Shown in pieces: positions 3,322 to 15,902 of a stretch of 45,321 nt of DNA. The notes beneath the pieces are model-generated. The model was not told where the DNA came from and did not search any database. It saw nothing but the letters and a program-made list of their open reading frames with translations. The stretch comes from Escherichia phage AV129: sequence record OR352959.1; one strand, 5' to 3'. A program made the translations under genes and the position numbers. Within the stretch, counting starts at the first letter, position 1, and each line of letters opens with the position of its first letter.

Positions 3322-5964
3322 ATGGCAGATCAGGCAGCAGGCATCACGCTAAAGGCTGATGTTGCACAAATCAGAACGGCAAATACTGTGCTGGACTCCT
3401 TCGCACAGAAATCCGAGAACACAGAAAACAAGGTTAAGAAATTAAACGACACCCTCGGCAAGTCCAAAAAGGTGACGAGTGACGCCGCGGGCGGAATGGA
3501 AAAGCTGGCAAACGAATCGCAGCGCGCCGCCGATGGCATGACGAAACAGGAGAGACTCGCCAACAGGTTAGGGATGTCGACTAAAAACCTGGGCTTTGCC
3601 TCGCGTAACGCCGCATTCCAGCTACAGGATATTGCGGTAACGCTTGAGATGGGGATGCCGGTTCACCGCGTCATGCTTCAGCAGTTACCGCAGCTAACTG
3701 GGGCGTTCGGTGGACTGGGTAACACGCTGCGTTATGTTGCGGGCTTCCTCGGCCCAGTAGGGATCGGCCTCGCCGCCGTAACGGCAACGTTAGGCGTGGG
3801 CGTGGCAATTACGTCCCGCGCAGAGAACCAGGTCGCCGCGCTTAACAAGACGCTGGCGCTGTCAGGTAACATTTCCGGCCTCACTGCAAACCAGATCCTG
3901 GTGTTATCCGAGAACGCCGAGCGCATGGGCGGATCATTCCGCAAGACGCGTGACACAATCCAGGCGCTGGCGGCGGCGGGTGTGAAAGCGGGTGGTGACT
4001 TCGGCGCATTGGCTAAGGTAGTTAATGACTTTGCGAAGGTGTCCAGCCAGCCGATCGAGGATGTGGTCGCGGCGGTGGCGAAGCTGTCAACCGACCCGGT
4101 AGGCGGCTTACGGGCATTGGCGGATAAGTATCACGTCGTAAACGAAGCGCAGATCCAGCAGGTACAGTCGCTTGTGGATATGGGTCGCGAGACAGACGCG
4201 GTGGCGCTGGCTAACAAAACCGCCGCGGCGTCGTTCACCACTATGACCAACGATATTAAGTCCAACATGGGTACGCTTGAGCGTTCGATGAACGTCGTCA
4301 CATCGGCAGCTAAATCTATGTGGGATGCCATCCTGGATGTTGGGCGCGCGCAGTCATCGAATGAGTCCGAGATGAAAGCGCGTGAGTCATTGCAGCGGCT
4401 GACCACGGCTTACTATGCCGAGATGAAAGCGGTAAACGCTGCCGGTGGGGTGATGACCGAAGCGCAGAAAGCGCGTATTAACATGCTTTACAGCGAACTT
4501 GTCGCACAGGAGAAGGTGGTGGCGTCGCTCACCCTGCGCAACCGTGCTGAGCGGGAAAACGCCAGCGCCGCGGACGAAGCAGCAAAGGCGAACGAAGAGG
4601 CCAACCGTACCGCCCGCGACCGCGCTGCGTTTGAGAAGGAGTACGCAACAAACGCGAAGAGGCGAGCTGACGAGATCGCCCGCCTCAATTTGCTGAATAA
4701 GCGTGGCGTGATTGACGAGAAAGAACTTGCCGAGGCGGTGAAGCAGGTAAACGAGCGTTACAAAGACCCCGCCCCGAAGAAGGCCGCCGCTGTTCGAGTC
4801 GATGCCGGGCTGAAAATGCTGGAGGTCGCACGGAGCGAACTGGCACAGCTTCGAGAATCAGGCAAGCAGATCGAGGCCAACTCTTCGACGCAGACCAGAA
4901 CGCAACGCGCGCAAGCGGCCCTTAACAAGCTGATTGCCGACAACGAGCAGTTAATCGCTGCGAGCAAAGAAAGGGCGCTGACGGCAGCAGAGAAGCAGCA
5001 ATTAGTCGAGTTCGGGCGCGTGAAGGAAGTCCGCGAGCAGATCGTCGAAGAAGCCAAATTGCTGGACGCGAAAGAGAAGCAGGTCAAGGCGCACGCGCAG
5101 ATCGACGCCTTCGTTAAGAACCAGAACGCCGAGCTAAAAGCCACCGCGGCGGGCTATGCGCTTTCCACTCGCGAAGCGGCAAACCTGCGTGAAGAATTGC
5201 AGCTAATTGACCGCCTTAAGCGGGTGGGCGCTAGCGATACCGATATTGATCTGGCGGTGTCTAAGCTGCGCGAAGTGCAGGAAGCACAGACCGGTGCTAA
5301 CGCCTCGCTATGGGATGGCTTCAGCCGCGGGCTTAAGGATAGCGTGGATGAAATGGGTAACGGCTATACGCAGATGACGTCACTCACAAAATTCACGTTC
5401 GGCGCTATGCAGGACACGATGAACAAGTTTTTCGAGACTGGCAAGCTGAACGCAAAGGATATGGTTAAATCCATCCTTAGCGAATTAATCAAGCTGGCTA
5501 CATCGCAGGCGTTCAAGTCCATCGTTAGCGCTTTCGGCGGTGACGGCGGCAAAAACGGATTGTTCGGCGCTATCTTCTCTGGCCTCACTAAGAATGCGGA
5601 CGGCGGAGCGTACGCAGGAGGCAATCTCGCGGCCTATTCGGGGAAAGTGGTAAGCCAGCCTACCTTTTTCAGTTATGGCGTCCAGGCGTTCGCTAAGGGC
5701 GCAGGATTGATGGGTGAGGCCGGACCCGAAGCCATCATGCCACTGAAGCGCGGGCCGGACGGGAAACTGGGTGTTGCCGCGTCTGGCGCAGGCGGTGGTA
5801 TGGTCGTGACGACTAACGTTTACACGGGGTCCGGTAAAACAGATACCAGTGTCAGCGGGCCGGACCCCCGTACCGCGCAGGCGTTCGGCAAGCAAATCAC
5901 CGAAGCGGTGAAGGCCGAGATCGTGAAAGCGACGAAACCGGGTGGTGTACTTTACAAACGATGA
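3322..5964 (+). CDS. tail tape measure protein
   Basis: 880-aa ORF after the chaperone pair; long helical Ala/Gln/Lys-rich middle and Gly-rich C-terminal region typical of tape measure proteins. Confidence 0.85.
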   Translation: MADQAAGITLKADVAQIRTANTVLDSFAQKSENTENKVKKLNDTLGKSKKVTSDAAGGMEKLANESQRAADGMTKQERLANRLGMSTKNLGFASRNAAFQLQDIAVTLEMGMPVHRVMLQQLPQLTGAFGGLGNTLRYVAGFLGPVGIGLAAVTATLGVGVAITSRAENQVAALNKTLALSGNISGLTANQILVLSENAERMGGSFRKTRDTIQALAAAGVKAGGDFGALAKVVNDFAKVSSQPIEDVVAAVAKLSTDPVGGLRALADKYHVVNEAQIQQVQSLVDMGRETDAVALANKTAAASFTTMTNDIKSNMGTLERSMNVVTSAAKSMWDAILDVGRAQSSNESEMKARESLQRLTTAYYAEMKAVNAAGGVMTEAQKARINMLYSELVAQEKVVASLTLRNRAERENASAADEAAKANEEANRTARDRAAFEKEYATNAKRRADEIARLNLLNKRGVIDEKELAEAVKQVNERYKDPAPKKAAAVRVDAGLKMLEVARSELAQLRESGKQIEANSSTQTRTQRAQAALNKLIADNEQLIAASKERALTAAEKQQLVEFGRVKEVREQIVEEAKLLDAKEKQVKAHAQIDAFVKNQNAELKATAAGYALSTREAANLREELQLIDRLKRVGASDTDIDLAVSKLREVQEAQTGANASLWDGFSRGLKDSVDEMGNGYTQMTSLTKFTFGAMQDTMNKFFETGKLNAKDMVKSILSELIKLATSQAFKSIVSAFGGDGGKNGLFGAIFSGLTKNADGGAYAGGNLAAYSGKVVSQPTFFSYGVQAFAKGAGLMGEAGPEAIMPLKRGPDGKLGVAASGAGGGMVVTTNVYTGSGKTDTSVSGPDPRTAQAFGKQITEAVKAEIVKATKPGGVLYKR

Positions 5965-5971
5965 TAAAATG

Positions 5972-6000
5972 GCCCTCACATCCATCGTGGGGGCTTTTTT
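5972..6000 (+). terminator. putative intrinsic terminator
   Basis: Imperfect hairpin GCCCTCAC/GTGGGGGC followed by T6 right after the tape measure stop. Confidence 0.45.
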
Positions 6001-6600
6001 ATGTCACAAGGTACAATCACATTAACTAAGGGGAGTAAGACCGTTACGGGCGCGGGAACGGCGTTCCTTAGCGAGATCGGGAAGGTACGCGTATTCGCCC
6101 GCATCGACGGCAACGACTACACCGGCAAAATTGCAGCATTCAACTCGAACACGGTCATTACACTGAAAGATAACTGGGCCGGCCCGACAAAAGCCGGTGC
6201 GGCATATGAGCTAATCGAAGCGCACGACCCGCGATCAAACGAATGGCCCTATTACTGGCACATGCAATTGCAGGGCGGCGGCGACGTGCAGTTAGCTTTC
6301 CGATCCGAGGAATTGCAATTCGGTAATGGTTACGGTCAGAACATCGCGGACGGCCCGAACGCCGAGACGAAACAATTTCCCGTGCAATTCATCGGACTGA
6401 CTACTGACAAGTGGTGCGACCCTAAACTGGTTTACAACTTTCTTCGCGGTCACTTCGTCAAACCGTTTGTTGTCACCGCGCCGGATGGCGAAACAGGTTT
6501 ATTCGTGGTCGAGCGTTCGAGCTTGTCGTACACTGACAACGGACACAACACGGCAACGGTGTCCGCCACCCTTAAGACTGCCATTGGATTCGTAAGATGA
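6001..6600 (+). CDS. minor tail protein (gpM-like / distal tail), putative
   Basis: First ORF after the tape measure in a lambda-like order. Confidence 0.45.
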   Translation: MSQGTITLTKGSKTVTGAGTAFLSEIGKVRVFARIDGNDYTGKIAAFNSNTVITLKDNWAGPTKAGAAYELIEAHDPRSNEWPYYWHMQLQGGGDVQLAFRSEELQFGNGYGQNIADGPNAETKQFPVQFIGLTTDKWCDPKLVYNFLRGHFVKPFVVTAPDGETGLFVVERSSLSYTDNGHNTATVSATLKTAIGFVR

Positions 6601-7385
6601 ATAAACTATATCGCGAGGCGACGCGCTTTGACCCGTCGGGACGCGTTCGCCTGATCCACATTGACGCGCAGGACGTGGAGCCTGGCGACGGCGCGATCGG
6701 CGCGGGCCATCACTATTTTCACTATTGCTTTATTCCGCACACTGCCGAGGATATTGCCGCCGCAGGTGGTGACGAGGACAAGCTAAAACCTAAATCCATC
6801 TTCTTCGGCGGGCAGGAGTTCGAATTTTGGCCCTTCGATTTATCCGGTCTTAACTTCTCCACATCAACGGCAGCAGAACCGCAGCTAACCATCGTCGATA
6901 TTGGCGGAATCATCACCCGGTTGTCGCTGAATCACGACCAGCTACTGGGCGCGAAGGTTGAGATCATTGATACGTTCGCGAAGTTCCTTGATAACGGGTC
7001 GGATCCAGACCCGACGCAAAAACGTGTCCAGGAGTATTACATCGACTCACAGGTCGGTCGCAATCCTGGCAAGCAGATCACCTTCGCATTATCCTCACCC
7101 GCGGATATGGAGGGGCAAGTAGTTCCCCGCCGCCAAATAATGAATATGTGCGAATGGGCGCTCAATGGGAAGTACGCCAGCGGGGACGGCTGCACGTGGA
7201 ACCTTGCGAAGCCTGGCATCAAATACTACGACGAGCGCGGTAATGAAGTCATTGCGATGAACATGGACCGATGCGGCGGCTGTTTGTCCGACTGTTATCT
7301 TCGATTTGGGCAAGGGCTTGCGGACCCTAAAGCGGCGGTGCTGGACTTCGGAGGCTTTCCGGGGTCCAGATTAATTAAGGGGTAG
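6597..7385 (+). CDS. minor tail protein L-like
   Basis: Position between the M-like and K-like genes; C-terminal Cys cluster CGGCLSDC as in lambda gpL-type proteins. Confidence 0.55.
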   Translation: MNKLYREATRFDPSGRVRLIHIDAQDVEPGDGAIGAGHHYFHYCFIPHTAEDIAAAGGDEDKLKPKSIFFGGQEFEFWPFDLSGLNFSTSTAAEPQLTIVDIGGIITRLSLNHDQLLGAKVEIIDTFAKFLDNGSDPDPTQKRVQEYYIDSQVGRNPGKQITFALSSPADMEGQVVPRRQIMNMCEWALNGKYASGDGCTWNLAKPGIKYYDERGNEVIAMNMDRCGGCLSDCYLRFGQGLADPKAAVLDFGGFPGSRLIKG

Positions 7386-11700: not shown

Positions 11701-12179
11701 CGTTTAACCATGCGGGCGGTAGTGCCACATACAGCCTTAAGGCTGGCGTGACGTATAACGGGACTTACTACGATGCCGGTATGCAGCTTTCGGTCGTGGC
11801 GGAAGGTGGCGCGGTTAAATCCCGCATCGCGTTCAAGGCGGACCAGTTCTACATCATGCACCCATCTAACGGGTCGCTTTCGTCCGCGTTTATCGTCGAC
11901 GGCGGGCAGGTGTACATCGACACAGCACGTATCAAGAACGCGTCCATCAACTTCGCGCAGATCACAGACACGCTTCAGTCCAATAACTGGAATCCGGGTA
12001 TCAGTGGCTGGCGTATCGCGAAGGATGGCGGGGCGGAGTTCAACAACGTAACGGTACGCGGCAACTTGTTTGCGACCACGGGTAACTTCGGATTCTCCGG
12101 CGGGTCGGTACAGATCGACGCAACCGGCATTAACGTGCCATTACCTGGCGGGGGTAGGGTGAAAGTGGGGACGTGGTGA
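8733..12179 (+). CDS. host specificity protein J-like central tail fiber
   Basis: 1148-aa ORF at the end of the tail tip gene order; N-terminus MTIIYDVTGHKGGGGKQHTPQE is gpJ-like. Confidence 0.85.
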   Translation: MTIIYDVTGHKGGGGKQHTPQETPDSLHSLAKIRILLALGEGEFEGITDPNELRQRVYLDGTPIQNADRSENFPGARVEFRPGTQHQDVIHGFSAVESEQSVGVKLENGTPWVRQINDTSLDAVRIRIGIPALYTNEDNGDLVGGRIDYKIVVYTDNADPREFRFAAVGKTMSLYERDHRIELPPNVNTGWRVEVHRITADSTSAKVVNDIRVQSITEIIDARLRYPLTALLFVEFDAKAFQNIPRVSIKCKGRKVLIPNNYDPINHTYSGDWDGTFKRAWTDNPAWHWYDICITERFGLGRRIKPQMLNRYALYQIAQRCDQFVSDGNGGREIRFKNDMYIQSQTDAWTVLKDLAAIFAGMTWWGNQMLNIVSDQPVAAVSHTITNASVIDGRFDYASGSQKTRYSTFAVAYGNPKNHYEDAIATGQRVELVRRHKINRLDITAIGCTRESEAQRRGHWALISNQLDQQVSFKVGMEGLFFIPGSVVAIADTNISGGFETRGGRLLPDPGTRTVLNTDSEITFRPGDKFLVRTDSGNVETREIASVNGNKVTLKTALDADPIPDQPFCVDGDDIQLQKFRITDLEYDDATSTFSVRGIEYNDSKYDAVDNGARLDPGIFTQVPDGVMKGPESVTITPSQISSQGQLITNVDIVFPPVKDAVVYEIQWRRTSLQNMAIQWGNDWVNIPRTASNGAHIPNVFSGNYQARVRAIGMGEISSPWVSSAITPVEGRLGGLNAPIITNAISGLHQILWKWNHNNAASDISYTELEVRKRGEMEWKFLTNVPYPGSDYAQTSLEFGIYQQLRARVADKIGNLSDWSAPFEGQVSDKVDEYMKGLDDEFLTSEDGKHFQEAIDTIPQGIYESMLTDAQQIFNARAEYKGIYAEITVAYNVATDAHKAVAQLETLIGTRLDDAEASIHTLQTAQSTHEQAFAQYQQTVAAKFGEQEAAIQQVQTATADVAGALAEYKTQVAAQFGQQSAAIEQKMTSSFNHAGGSATYSLKAGVTYNGTYYDAGMQLSVVAEGGAVKSRIAFKADQFYIMHPSNGSLSSAFIVDGGQVYIDTARIKNASINFAQITDTLQSNNWNPGISGWRIAKDGGAEFNNVTVRGNLFATTGNFGFSGGSVQIDATGINVPLPGGGRVKVGTW

Positions 12180-12186
12180 ATGCGAA

Positions 12187-12206
12187 GGGGCCATCCGGCC
12201 CCTTTT
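12187..12206 (+). terminator. rho-independent terminator at a convergent gene junction
   Basis: GGGGCC-atcc-GGCCCC hairpin followed by TTTT. Confidence 0.6.
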
Positions 12207-13179
12207 AATATATGTTAGGAATGACGAGTAACGGGGTTGGTACTGCAATATTTTTACCCGGCATTTGGAATTGTTGCCGTGAGTAGTTGCCAATGACGCG
12301 GTTTTTAGCTATGCGCACATTATTGCCCGCCATTCGTATACCGTTCATGCGTACGTGGTTATAGCCGCCGTTGTTCTCAATAAGCGCGCCGGTGTATGAA
12401 AGCTGGACCAGGCTGTTACCGATGTACTGATCGCCGCCGCCGATATTAATAAGGCGGTCATAAACAAACGGCTTATTCACAGTTGAGAACGTGACCTGAC
12501 CCTGGTTGTTTGTCATGGTGATGCCGTTCCCAGGGGTGGGCGGCGTATTGTTGAATATAACCAAGTCCATTTCAACAGCCGCGCCTACGTCGTCAATCCC
12601 ACCATAGGATGCATTACGGACGATAATACTTCCGCCATCGAAGCCGACAGACACGTTTCCGTCGTCCCAGCGCGCGAATGGGACACCGCCTACTGGTAAC
12701 GGCATACTTCCGTTCACCCACACGCGCTGCGCATATTGGCAGGTCATTAGCCTGGACACATTGGATATAGCGGTGAAGTCCGTCGAATTCGCCACCAGTA
12801 AGCCAGCGTTGCGCGATCCCACCGGCAGCACTTCCATAATCACCCCGCCCCATGATGGAAGCCCGCTATATGCGTTATACGCGTCCTCACCGCGCAAGGT
12901 GATTCCGCTATCCCCATTACGCTGTATTGACGTTATGTAAAACGGATCTGGCAAGACCAGTGTCTGGTCGAAGACTTCCATCACTTCAACGGGACTTGTT
13001 AGCACGACGACCAGATCTGACCCCGGCGTTAGCGGAGTGTTAATAGTTAGCGTCTTGTCAGACTGGCAGCGCTGATAGAATGATGTACAGAATGACGGCG
13101 CGCGTAGCCCAGCGGTTATCTCCATAACCGGTCGCCCGTCGTTGTAGTCGATAAGTATCCCAGCGCCCATTATTACCAC
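12205..13179 (-). CDS. putative tail-associated / receptor-binding beta-rich protein
   Basis: 324-aa Gly/Asn/Thr-rich ORF on the opposite strand between the J-like gene and the side fiber, translationally coupled to an upstream lipoprotein gene. Confidence 0.3.
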   Translation of the reverse strand: MVIMGAGILIDYNDGRPVMEITAGLRAPSFCTSFYQRCQSDKTLTINTPLTPGSDLVVVLTSPVEVMEVFDQTLVLPDPFYITSIQRNGDSGITLRGEDAYNAYSGLPSWGGVIMEVLPVGSRNAGLLVANSTDFTAISNVSRLMTCQYAQRVWVNGSMPLPVGGVPFARWDDGNVSVGFDGGSIIVRNASYGGIDDVGAAVEMDLVIFNNTPPTPGNGITMTNNQGQVTFSTVNKPFVYDRLINIGGGDQYIGNSLVQLSYTGALIENNGGYNHVRMNGIRMAGNNVRIAKNRVIGNYSRQQFQMPGKNIAVPTPLLVIPNIY

Positions 13180-13394
13180 TCCCGTGATTTAACTGATACC
13201 GTACCCGAGAAGTTGCCGTCGCTATCGGCAGACAGACCAGTGAAGCGCATATCCACATCTCCGGCTGGCACTTTCTTCCCGTCGACGTAGCGCAACATGC
13301 AGCTACCGTAGGCAACCGTAATGCAATCGCCGTTGTTGCGTTCTACAGCACAACCGGACAACAGAACCGCACAAATCATAATTAAAGTTTTCAT
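13173..13394 (-). CDS. small lipoprotein, putative superinfection-exclusion (Cor/Llp-like)
   Basis: ATG at 13394 with GGAGA RBS; signal peptide MKTLIMICAVLLSG followed by lipobox Cys; ~73 aa; sits next to the receptor-binding genes. Confidence 0.5.
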   Translation of the reverse strand: MKTLIMICAVLLSGCAVERNNGDCITVAYGSCMLRYVDGKKVPAGDVDMRFTGLSADSDGNFSGTVSVKSREW

Positions 13395-13474
13395 GGTATC
13401 ATCTCCTATATTTGGTTGAGTTTTAGTATTACACCGCTCGATCAAGAATGCAACCAATTTACGAGGATTTAGCT

Positions 13475-15298
13475 ATGGCAGCGGGTACTCTATCCGTAAC
13501 GAATAACAGCAAGGCGGTTGTCGGGGTAGGCACGACGTTTACCGCGTTTAACGCTGGCGACTTCTTAACGCTGGTGGTAGGGCAAGTCCCCTACACTGTT
13601 GCTATCGCGTCAGTCGAAAGCGACACCGCGCTTACGCTGGTGCTGCCGTTCGACGGCCCCACGGCAACCGATCTCGCGTGGGATGGCGTTAAGCGCGATA
13701 CCATGTCACTGGCGACGATGGGCGTAACCGTACAGGCACAGAAAGCATTGCGCTTGATGATTGCAGATGAAAACAACTGGCGTGCAATCTTCGGCGACGC
13801 TGAAGAAATAACTGTGACGTTGCCTAACGGGCTGGTAATGCAGGGTATGTCATGGGGATATCTGTCGCAGTTGATGAAACAGGTCGACCCAGTTGAGATG
13901 CGCAACCTGCAACAGCAAGCCGCCGCATCTGAAGCAGCCGCGCAGGGATACCGGAACGAGGCCGAAGGCTTCAAGACCGAGACGGCGGGCATTCGCGACG
14001 CCACCAATCAGATTAAGGCGGATACGCAGGCGATCCACGACGCCACTAATACCATCAAGACGCAGACTGACCAGATTAAGACTGATACTCAGGCCATCAA
14101 GGACCAGACGAACCAGATCAAGACTGACACCGGCGTTATTCGTGACGAAGCCAATATGGCGAAGGCGGACGCGCAAGCCGCCAGCACTGCCGCGGAGGGA
14201 TTTCGCGACCAGGCCGAGGAATGGGCGCAAAGCGTTAACGCGGATAACCTGCTAACCAAATCCGGCAACCTCGCGGGGCTTGCGGACAAAGGTGCGTCGT
14301 GGGCTAACCTCATGCCGTCCGGCCCGCTTCGAGTAGGCGCTGATCCCGTCGACAATCTGGACGCTGCGACTAGAGGATGGGTGTGGCGCGGTCTTGATGA
14401 CGTGGGGGTGTGGGCCTTACGCAATAACTATGCTTCGGAACCCGCTGGCGGCGCAGAAGTATACGGCGGTCGCTTCGACTCATCTGCGAACGTCGCAGGG
14501 GCCGAAAAATACAGAATGTCGCTGCAACTTCAGGGATTTAATAACGTAGACGCCTGGACACGTTTGGTTACCGCGAACGTCCGCAGCATGGAGAACGCGG
14601 CGACGTGGGACTTTAAGTACGATGGTAAGTTGCTTTTCAACAAAGGATTGGTCCCCACGTCCGCCACGGCGTCGCCGGGTAATACCTACGTCACCCTTGC
14701 GAATACCTGGTATAACGGCCAATACTCGGGCCACGTCGGCTTTGTTGGGGGCGGGGTGGGGACGAGTGGTGGCGGGTGGCGTAACTTTATTTCGTTCGGA
14801 GCGCTGATCCACACGGAGGCCGGTAACTCACACCCCCACGCTATGATTTCGCAGGTCTTTGACTATGATTTGGCGTCGGGGGTACAGCCCAACGGCGATA
14901 TCGTTCGAAACACAACATTCAACCCCGAAGCATATGATATTACCTTCGGCAACAACTCAGGGACTGTTAACTATATTTTCGCAAAGTCACCAGTATCCGA
15001 TAGGGCGCTGAAGCATGATATCGCCAGGATCGATACTCAAGTTGCGTACGATAACGTTATGGCGATGGAATACTCTTCCTTTGTTTATAACTACGACAAA
15101 AAGGAGACGGTCAGACGTGGTTTTATCGCGCAGCAGTTGGAAGAGATCGACCCGCAGTATGTTCGTAAGTACGCCGACGCAACGGGTAAAGAGTTTCTGG
15201 CATTAGATGAAAACGTCCTGTTACTTGACCTTGTCGCGACTGTTCAGCATTTGGCGGCGAAGGTTGAGGCGTTAGAAAGTAAGTTAGCGGAGAAATGA
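13475..15298 (+). CDS. side tail fiber with C-terminal intramolecular chaperone (peptidase S74-like)
   Basis: Nine heptad-like repeats (xIKxDTQ type) in the shaft; C-terminal SDRALKHDIARID...LESKLAEK resembles self-cleaving fiber chaperone domains; ATG at 13475 with gagga RBS. Confidence 0.7.
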   Translation: MAAGTLSVTNNSKAVVGVGTTFTAFNAGDFLTLVVGQVPYTVAIASVESDTALTLVLPFDGPTATDLAWDGVKRDTMSLATMGVTVQAQKALRLMIADENNWRAIFGDAEEITVTLPNGLVMQGMSWGYLSQLMKQVDPVEMRNLQQQAAASEAAAQGYRNEAEGFKTETAGIRDATNQIKADTQAIHDATNTIKTQTDQIKTDTQAIKDQTNQIKTDTGVIRDEANMAKADAQAASTAAEGFRDQAEEWAQSVNADNLLTKSGNLAGLADKGASWANLMPSGPLRVGADPVDNLDAATRGWVWRGLDDVGVWALRNNYASEPAGGAEVYGGRFDSSANVAGAEKYRMSLQLQGFNNVDAWTRLVTANVRSMENAATWDFKYDGKLLFNKGLVPTSATASPGNTYVTLANTWYNGQYSGHVGFVGGGVGTSGGGWRNFISFGALIHTEAGNSHPHAMISQVFDYDLASGVQPNGDIVRNTTFNPEAYDITFGNNSGTVNYIFAKSPVSDRALKHDIARIDTQVAYDNVMAMEYSSFVYNYDKKETVRRGFIAQQLEEIDPQYVRKYADATGKEFLALDENVLLLDLVATVQHLAAKVEALESKLAEK

Positions 15299-15304
15299 GA
15301 ATAA

Positions 15305-15328
15305 GGGGCCATACGGCCCCTTTTTTTT
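15305..15328 (+). terminator. rho-independent terminator
   Basis: GGGGCC-atac-GGCCCC hairpin followed by T8. Confidence 0.7.
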
Positions 15329-15902
15329 AGTTTGAGTTTTCCCAGTCCATTTTGCGCCGCACCAGCGGGCTTTCAAAGTATTCCTTGCCCTCAACTTCCA
15401 CCAAAGGCCAGTCGTTCACAATTACGTACGGCTCCGCGATATCCTCAATCACTCCGTGCGCGCTTTGTGGCCCTAACGACACACCAACCAGGATAACCCC
15501 GGCAACGCGACGTGATAGATATTCGCGAGCGCAACGCGCCTCAACCAGTCCGCGACGGATGCCGCTGGTGGCCTTAACCTCGTAGGTCCATACGGCATCG
15601 ATCACATGCTCGCGGAAGTCTGGACCGGACTTAACCTTGCGCTTTCCTACCATGATAATATCTCCGCGGTCGATGGTGTTGGCGCTAAACAGGCCGGTAC
15701 GCATTAGTAAGCCTTGCGGTATGCAACTACGCCCGCCCGCCTGCCCCTCAAGGTACATGCCTGCAAACATTTCGCCCAGCACACCGACCAGTCGGCTTTG
15801 CTTGCACGCGTCAGACTTTAAGCGCCACTGGTCAAACTCGATGCTTGCTATCATTGCCGCCAGGTGGAATTGTTTACCAGATATTTCGTATTCGCCGTAC
15901 AT
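15327..15902 (-). CDS. hypothetical protein (possible PD-(D/E)xK-type nuclease)
   Basis: 191-aa ORF; GPDF...YEVK resembles a PD-(D/E)xK core; weak. Confidence 0.3.
   Translation of the reverse strand: MYGEYEISGKQFHLAAMIASIEFDQWRLKSDACKQSRLVGVLGEMFAGMYLEGQAGGRSCIPQGLLMRTGLFSANTIDRGDIIMVGKRKVKSGPDFREHVIDAVWTYEVKATSGIRRGLVEARCAREYLSRRVAGVILVGVSLGPQSAHGVIEDIAEPYVIVNDWPLVEVEGKEYFESPLVRRKMDWENSN

Follow-up and report, generated by a model that had tools for sequence, protein, structure and literature searches.

The two leftward genes that break the rightward run of tail genes in Escherichia phage AV129 very probably constitute the LptD-type receptor-specificity module of a Dhillonvirus. The window, that is, the whole stretch of 45,321 nucleotides analysed here (sequence record OR352959.1), is a complete and typical Dhillonvirus-type coliphage genome, and the module in it is already known from structural and genetic work on close relatives: with it, Dhillonviruses and T1-like coliphages attach to LptD, the LPS exporter of the outer membrane. 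One gene encodes a 321-aa protein of the DUF6453 family, predicted to be the terminal receptor-binding protein for the outer-membrane protein LptD, and the other a small lipoprotein of the Rtp45 type, predicted to exclude superinfecting phages (Table 1). An earlier note, made from the letters of the sequence alone, had interpreted the locus as an exclusion lipoprotein paired with a possible receptor-binding protein, and this interpretation was essentially right.

Table 1. Features of the receptor-specificity locus and of its two neighbouring fibre genes in the AV129 window
Feature	Coordinates	Strand	Basis
J-like central tail fibre / tail tip protein, 1148 aa	8733..12179	+	Pfam matches; J-like tail tip annotation in Oekolampad
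Allele-specific J C-terminal tail, about aa 1086-1148	11989..12176	+	DNA homology break; left end of cassette
GC-rich hairpin, 9-bp, AAGGGGCC-ATCC-GGCCCCTT	12184..12205	both	In the gap where the J and receptor-binding protein genes converge
Receptor-binding protein gene, 321 aa, DUF6453, predicted LptD-specific	12205..13170	-	PF20051, 9rpt_C, identity to Oekolampad
Rtp45-type superinfection-exclusion lipoprotein gene (predicted)	13173..13394	-	PF24052, phrog_4281, 9rps_D, Rtp45 BLASTP
Signal peptide and lipobox codons, MKTLIMICAVLLSGCA	13348..13394	-	Conserved right flank of cassette, common with Cor-type genes
Candidate leftward promoter	13403..13453	-	TTGCAT (13453-13448), 17-nt spacer, TGtAATACT, then AGGAG
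Lateral tail fibre gene	13475..15298	+	Pfam Peptidase_S74 3.2e-11, phrog_1980 1.5e-123

Both minus-strand ORFs were found between J and the lateral fibre, in agreement with the leftward two-gene unit of that note. The stop codon of J lies 25 nt from that of the receptor-binding protein gene, the lipoprotein gene is immediately upstream of the latter gene, and the lateral fibre gene, whose start was placed at 13475 through the Bas84 annotation, is divergent from the cassette and encodes a fibre with a C-terminal intramolecular chaperone domain. J itself matches Pfam FNIII-A_GpJ (2.2e-39), Phage_Tail_Tip (1.4e-37, residues 982-1118) and Phage-tail_3 (5.6e-17). The DNA of the locus (12100-13500) is 98% identical to phages TH11 and TH13 and 96% identical to JohannBuxtorf/Bas84, the corresponding loci of Bas83-85 show 88-96% identity, and gene order and orientation in Oekolampad, Bas84 and Rtp (rtp43/rtp44/rtp45) are identical to those in AV129. 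Because the 321-aa protein scores 400.6 bits (cut-off 25; 5.4e-120) against Pfam PF20051, DUF6453, the lipoprotein scores 75.6 bits (cut-off 27; 2.9e-21) against PF24052, 'Phage_lipoprotein', and a DNA-level search found the gene pair in 63 phage records, the pair is far beyond chance. Searches of NCBIfam and PADLOC with the two proteins gave no match for either.

The true start of the second gene in the unit is almost certainly ATG 13170, because it is preceded at a distance of 8 nt by GGGAG (13183-13179), MGAGIL is the annotated N-terminus of homologues, and the Oekolampad protein that was expressed and solved begins likewise. The earlier note had given this protein 324 aa, with a start overlapping the stop of the lipoprotein gene, but GTG 13179 is only the start in the ORF list and the real protein has 321 aa; with the start at ATG 13170, the two genes do not overlap but are separated by a 2-nt gap, and their coupling is still tight. 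The description of the protein as Gly/Asn/Thr-rich holds for Gly (11.5%) and Asn (8.7%) but not for Thr, which at 6.5% is unremarkable (V, 10.0%; S, 6.5%). Its alignment to PF20051 pairs residues 4-297 with positions 1-290 of the 291-position model, and a search of the PDB matched chain 9rpt_C from end to end (residues 1-321, E 9.2e-189). The protein is 88% identical to Oekolampad bas18_0025 over its full length (321 aa), 99% identical to Bas84_0026 and 32.8% identical to rtp44 over 100% of its length. 9RPT is the structure, solved by cryo-EM, of LptDE from Shigella flexneri with the receptor-binding protein of Oekolampad (Bas18) (Dunbar et al., PNAS 2025, PMC12685063). The suggestion that the partner of the lipoprotein could be a receptor-binding or accessory tail protein is thus supported, as a prediction, by the full-length match to this chain and by the identity to the Oekolampad receptor-binding protein, and all the sequence-level comparisons made place it in the DUF6453 family of LptD receptor-binding proteins. 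The 88% identity to the solved chain likewise suggests a beta-rich fold; structure prediction, which the earlier note had proposed, gave a single-sequence AlphaFold2 model with a mean pLDDT of 29.3, too low to be used.

Public annotation points elsewhere for this gene. The label of phrog_1265 reads 'membrane protein; moron, auxiliary metabolic gene and host takeover', the Bas84, SU10 and C119 records carry the same membrane-protein/moron label, and placement on the opposite strand is unusual for a structural gene, so that the product might be a host-takeover membrane protein or moron instead of a virion protein. This is very unlikely, as the protein has no transmembrane segment (maximum 19-residue Kyte-Doolittle average, 1.26) and no signal peptide, its 88%-identical Oekolampad homologue proved soluble on purification and binds LptDE at the extracellular face (Dunbar et al., 2025), and the allele at the DUF6453 locus follows receptor specificity across families. 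The public label is not supported by these properties.

The receptor, which the earlier note had left unnamed, is predicted to be LptD. The locus is the 'bona fide RBP locus' that Maffei et al. (2021), and again Dunbar et al. (2025), described downstream of gpJ, and its alleles tracked the receptor without exception in Drexlerviridae, Dhillonvirus, Nonagvirus and Seuratvirus; lptD resistance mutants were found for Oekolampad (Maffei et al., 2021). In E. coli, resistance maps to EL4, EL5 and EL11 of LptD. The interface between the Oekolampad receptor-binding protein and LptDE measures about 1,700 Å2 and contacts EL3-5 and EL11, and Gln299, which is hydrogen-bonded to LptD Ser350 in this complex (Dunbar et al., 2025), is conserved in the AV129 protein. 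Binding to LptDE in vitro was very slow and needed a degraded LptD jellyroll domain (Dunbar et al., 2025). Bas83-85 were predicted to be LptD-specific in a preprint (10.64898/2026.04.02.716166), in which identity above 30% is the criterion for the LptD-specific family; Bas83 and Bas84, the nearest relatives, were assigned to LptD there by locus structure only, their screens having given no clear phenotype.

The homology also leaves room for a protein of the same fold and architecture whose specificity has shifted, the 12% divergence from Oekolampad having retargeted it to another outer-membrane protein or to the LptD variants of other hosts. The two proteins differ at 40 of 321 residues, half of which (20) fall within the first 110, and among Dhillonviruses the cassette is more diverged (identity mostly 80-90%) than its flanks (mostly 90-95%). 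Moreover, single point mutations in LptD abolish binding, so the interface is sensitive. Such a shift is nevertheless improbable, since relatives in the family with no more than 33% identity (Rtp44/Bas01 type) still have LptD as receptor, identity above 30% suffices for the LptD-specific family in the preprint, and the C-terminal 60 residues, Gln299 included, are almost invariant.

The lipoprotein gene begins with ATG 13394, 8 nt downstream of a Shine-Dalgarno sequence AGGAG (13407-13403), and ends with TAA 13175-13173. A longer TTG-started ORF from 13457 was rejected, as this start is unused in annotated homologues. The 73-aa precursor, MKTLIMICAVLLSGC/AVERNN..., is the small lipoprotein with signal peptide and lipobox Cys that the sequence had first suggested: the n-region MK and a hydrophobic core are followed by the lipobox L-S-G-C (LLSG/C), in which Cys15 is the residue to be lipidated, and Ala stands at +2. 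The type II signal peptide, MKTLIMICAVLLSG-C15-A16, can be read directly from the sequence and has no Asp at +2, consistent with sorting to the outer membrane; the mature protein has 59 aa and 6.3 kDa. In addition to PF24052, the lipoprotein matches phrog_4281 (4.5e-33), PDB chain 9rps_D, which is Rtp45 (E 2.2e-8), and Rtp45 in BLASTP (36% identity, E 6e-13), and it is 97% identical to Oekolampad bas18_0026 over 73 aa, with 2 substitutions. Cys24 and Cys32 align with the disulfide-forming Cys30 and Cys38 of Rtp45 at the same 8-residue spacing. Judged by these alignments, the lipoprotein is a member of the Rtp45-type (PF24052) family. A reading as an o-spanin was also considered and discarded on the position of the gene between two fibre genes and on the homology to Rtp45.

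Membership of the Rtp45 family supports, at the level of prediction, the view that the lipoprotein is a superinfection-exclusion factor; its classification as Cor- or Llp-type in the earlier note holds for function only. Cells carrying cloned rtp45 reportedly became resistant to Rtp in the original description of Rtp45 by Wietzorrek and colleagues in 2006. Structure 9RPS contains LptDE-LptM with Rtp45 of phage Rtp on the periplasmic side and with EL4 displaced (Dunbar et al., 2025). The same study named bas18_0026 as the exclusion lipoprotein of Oekolampad, although its expression failed; the mechanism for the Oekolampad-type lipoprotein would thus be carried over by analogy from Rtp45, at 35-36% identity.

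A literal Cor or Llp kinship would have a different consequence, namely that the lipoprotein blocks FhuA and that the phage uses FhuA as receptor. It would be in line with a match to phrog_1119, 'Cor superinfection exclusion protein' (E 5.8e-4), and with the use of the same promoter and signal peptide by Cor-annotated genes in many Dhillonviruses. However, this match covers only the signal peptide (residues 1-30) and the sequences diverge directly past the lipobox, for which membership of the Cor family was rejected; the mature part has no relationship to its Cor-type counterparts in mckay and SM_W22. Furthermore, the PDB-wide phmmer searches returned Rtp45 for the lipoprotein, and neither Llp nor pb5 chains up to E 10 for the lipoprotein and E 1 for the receptor-binding protein. 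Finally, in mckay and SM_W22 this slot holds a Cor-type exclusion gene together with two different rightward genes (100-aa and 224-aa) where DUF6453 sits in AV129, and no DUF6453. With the alignments contradicting it in this way, use of FhuA is scarcely conceivable, and an exclusion lipoprotein of the Rtp45 type acting on LptD is the preferred prediction.

A single leftward transcript would cover both genes, starting from a promoter that stands back-to-back with the lateral fibre gene and ending at the hairpin shared with J. The elements of the candidate promoter (-10 hexamer at 13430-13425) were read straight off the sequence and are kept in mckay and Oekolampad in the alignment; the putative promoter is weak by consensus and falls below the scan threshold. 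Indeed, a consensus promoter/terminator scan reported neither this intergenic candidate nor the hairpin between J and the receptor-binding protein gene, and its promoter-like matches, 4 against 2.0 ± 1.2 by chance, were near expectation and all within coding sequence. The hairpin folds with -16.9 kcal/mol on the + strand (z -2.25) and -15.7 kcal/mol on the - strand (z -3.06) and is followed by TTTTAATATA on the + strand. Terminators are annotated at its place in the WFI and SU57 records, and it is probably a bidirectional intrinsic terminator for J and the 321-aa gene.

A small addition by this analysis is the extent of the exchangeable cassette, which begins at about residue 1086 of J and ends with the codon that follows the lipobox. 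Between the AV129 DNA and that of the Dhillonviruses mckay and SM_W22, homology breaks off at 11988, near J residue 1086, and is found again from 13348, and in tblastn these two phages match J only at aa 1069-1099. The 1,359-bp cassette occurs in 63 phage records only, whereas 124 records, many of them annotated Cor, have the 127-bp segment 13348-13474 that holds promoter, ribosome-binding site and signal peptide. In both protein and DNA alignments, the 16-residue leader MKTLIMICAVLLSGCA is identical between AV129 and the Cor-type proteins of mckay and SM_W22 through Cys15-Ala16, and the sequences are unrelated thereafter; this common leader explains why the weak PHROG Cor match is limited to residues 1-30. 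At the other end, the C-terminal tail of J co-varies with the cassette. LptD-type J tails, namely those of AV129, Oekolampad and Rtp43, share the segment RGNL(F/Y)A..G.F.F.G (RGNLFATTGNFGFSG), which is absent from the J of mckay, and this tail is presumed to be the docking site for the receptor-binding protein. Receptor-specific C-terminal tips of GpJ have been reported (preprint 10.64898/2026.04.02.716166), and an LptD-type J tail borne on the cassette agrees with the published view that GpJ tip and locus-encoded receptor-binding protein have to match. Citrobacter phage HCF1, which matches residues 1-34 of the 321-aa protein only, was considered as an example of a modular N-terminal adaptor and rejected, as its record is UNVERIFIED_ASMBLY and the gene is apparently truncated against J.

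From the solved complexes and these alignments, the following course can be proposed. The 321-aa DUF6453 protein, a separate polypeptide, would dock on the allele-matched C-terminal tip of J as the terminal receptor-binding protein and, by homology, insert deep into the extracellular lumen of open LptDE, and this engagement of the receptor would commit the phage to DNA ejection. The lipoprotein precursor would be exported, lipidated at Cys15 and, with Ala at +2, delivered to the outer membrane's inner leaflet. There it would bind LptDE from the periplasm, between LptE and LptM, push a hairpin up the barrel lumen, displace EL4 by up to 20 Å and lock LptD in a shape that the receptor-binding protein cannot bind because of the displaced EL4. 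As an outcome, infected cells would be shielded from superinfection and progeny virions from wasted adsorption to debris. For AV129 itself, the dependence on LptD, the activity in exclusion, the docking of the receptor-binding protein on J and the leftward promoter are all predictions from sequence.

This arrangement can be compared with four known systems. First, Oekolampad (Bas18; 9RPT/9RPW/9RQI) belongs to the same genus and has J rightward, receptor-binding protein and lipoprotein leftward and lateral fibre rightward, as in AV129; its receptor-binding protein differs at 40 residues, its lipoprotein at 2, and its lateral fibre is a different one. Second, Rtp, a member of Drexlerviridae (rtp44/rtp45; 9RPS), has the same two Pfam families in the same order, lipoprotein first and then receptor-binding protein, convergent with the J homologue rtp43, and shares the disulfide cysteines and the type of J tail. 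Rtp belongs to another phage family, however, its signal peptide is unrelated, and identity is down to 33% for the receptor-binding protein and 36% for the lipoprotein. Third, T5 likewise has a separate monomeric receptor-binding protein, pb5, on the central fibre tip, and next to it encodes Llp, a small lipoprotein facing the periplasm that inactivates the same receptor from inside, but this receptor is FhuA, and Llp acts by long-range allostery whereas Rtp45 physically displaces EL4; as far as the sequences tell, T5 is similar in its logic alone. Fourth, the Cor-type lipoproteins (mckay gp24, SM_W22 cor and Envy; phi80, T1 and N15) share with the AV129 gene the genomic slot, divergent promoter, ribosome-binding site and 16-residue leader, while Cor-type Dhillonviruses have an unrelated mature domain, different rightward partner genes and a different J tail.

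Distant homologues of both AV129 proteins were found by tblastn in podophages of Gordonclarkvirinae, where they are unlinked in Kuravirus. SU10 RefSeq gp019 (343 aa), annotated as 'membrane protein', is a DUF6453 protein with a score above threshold (2.2e-23) and is 26% identical to the 321-aa protein (E 2e-14). Immediately before it stands gp018 (322 aa), to judge by gene order and numbering the tail needle published as gp18, which shares the Phage_Tail_Tip domain with the C-terminus of J; gp19 goes unmentioned in the paper on the SU10 structure. The C-terminal end of this needle was examined as a possible LptD-type J tail and dismissed, since it is without the RGNLFATTGNFGFSG segment, like J of the FhuA type. 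In phiEco32, phi32_106 among the early genes matches PF24052 (2.4e-36) and is 43% identical to Rtp45. For these phages the LPS core is assumed to be the terminal receptor (Humolli, 2025), and a literature search found no paper that links Kuravirus or phiEco32 to LptD. The Kuravirus homologues, which are another addition by this analysis, should be taken as a sequence-derived lead and not as a result.

Taken together with the cassette boundaries, this lead would allow a wider reading, which is held tentatively and at slightly less than an even chance, that J-tip adaptor, DUF6453 receptor-binding protein and PF24052 lipoprotein make up a portable kit of three parts for LptD recognition, of which the AV129 cassette would be one copy. 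In Dhillonviruses, its recombination junctions would be fixed, one inside J at about residue 1086 and the other exactly after the lipobox codon, and the constant promoter, ribosome-binding site and signal-peptide leader would serve any exclusion domain plugged in. The kit would also reach beyond siphophages: Kuravirus-type podophages (SU10, phiEco32 and Bas87) encode a DUF6453 protein directly behind the needle with its J-type Phage_Tail_Tip domain, as well as an early-region lipoprotein with 43% identity to Rtp45, and LptD would be their terminal receptor.

Binding to the open state of LptDE and exclusion through loop displacement have been published already, and the main value of the present analysis is one of annotation: records call the gene 'hypothetical', 'membrane protein' or 'moron', while it most probably encodes the terminal receptor-binding protein. 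A phage can in this way be assigned to an essential outer-membrane protein, LptD, by its sequence alone, and such an assignment is useful for the design of phage cocktails and for receptor swapping. The precise boundaries of the cassette, with the shared signal-peptide leader, suggest a recipe for receptor-module swaps between Dhillonviruses. The Kuravirus homologues are a testable lead on the terminal receptor of those podophages, and if the reading as a portable kit is true, LptD would have an unrecognised role as the terminal receptor of the Kuravirus-type podophage subfamily.

The LptD cassette, with its leftward pair of a DUF6453 receptor-binding protein gene and an exclusion lipoprotein gene of Rtp45 type (PF24052), is flanked on the right by a 127-bp leader that contains the candidate leftward promoter region, a ribosome-binding site and 16 codons for a signal peptide plus lipobox. 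This leader is common to 124 Dhillonvirus-like records with a DNA identity of about 88–100%, and is kept with either mature exclusion domain, Rtp45-type or Cor-type; the recombination junction falls exactly 3′ of the lipobox codon. In TheodorHerzl (Bas14, NC_073062.1), which Maffei et al. report to be LptD-dependent, the match is confined to bases 34–127 of the leader and homology across the signal-peptide codons is therefore absent. This suggests a second LptD-type sub-allele, the right-hand junction of which differs.

An apparently truncated locus is found in Citrobacter phage HCF1 (MN545971.1), which has an exclusion lipoprotein homologue (53% identical) but a receptor-binding protein gene that stops after its first 34 codons, where it runs into the convergent J gene for the central tail fibre. 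Because the record is flagged UNVERIFIED_ASMBLY, the short gene reflects either a deletion or faulty assembly. E. coli Dhillonvirus-type loci or Drexlerviridae-type homologues also occur in records labeled Acinetobacter phage NJ01 (DNA identity, 85.5%) and Campylobacter phage A1xx (several; A144 has 91% identity across the leader). These host labels look doubtful, and contamination or mis-assignment is likely to lie behind them.

Coordinates of the features discussed
Feature	Position	Strand	Remarks
Shared leader	window 13348-13474		
Lateral tail fibre gene	window 13475-15298	(+)	middle section coiled-coil-like; C-terminal Peptidase_S74 chaperone domain
Conserved 191-aa ORF	window 15327-15902	(-)	phrog_10558, 2.6e-117
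HCF1 locus	MN545971.1 2772-3102		
Kuravirus-type locus, SU10	NC_027395.1 2689-4690		
Kuravirus-type locus, Bas87	5659-6690		
Kuravirus-type locus, phiEco32	3968-4249		

The lateral tail fibre gene starts at 13448 in the ORF listing and at 13475 according to its homologues. In mckay and SM_W22 nothing matches its central and C-terminal part (about 13983–15290) at the DNA level, and in Bas84 and Oekolampad the same holds for the stretch from about 14218/14254 to 15290. This variable part is a second host-range module, distinct from the LptD cassette. Convergent with the fibre gene is a 191-aa ORF, for which Pfam gave no match and which has counterparts in both Oekolampad (bas18_0028) and mckay (gp22), whatever the receptor allele.

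A DUF6453 protein is also encoded in Kuravirus/Gordonclarkvirinae podophages (SU10 gp019, 2.2e-23). The gp019 gene lies directly 3′ of gp018, which matches the published tail needle and the product of which bears a J-type Phage_Tail_Tip domain. These podophages also carry a PF24052 lipoprotein gene in the early region, unlinked to the DUF6453 gene, the product of which has 43% identity to Rtp45; the 43% refers to the lipoprotein. The SU10 structure paper nowhere mentions gp19, and the literature searched yielded no link between these podophages and LptD. LptD may be an unrecognised terminal receptor of the Kuravirus/Gordonclarkvirinae podophages.
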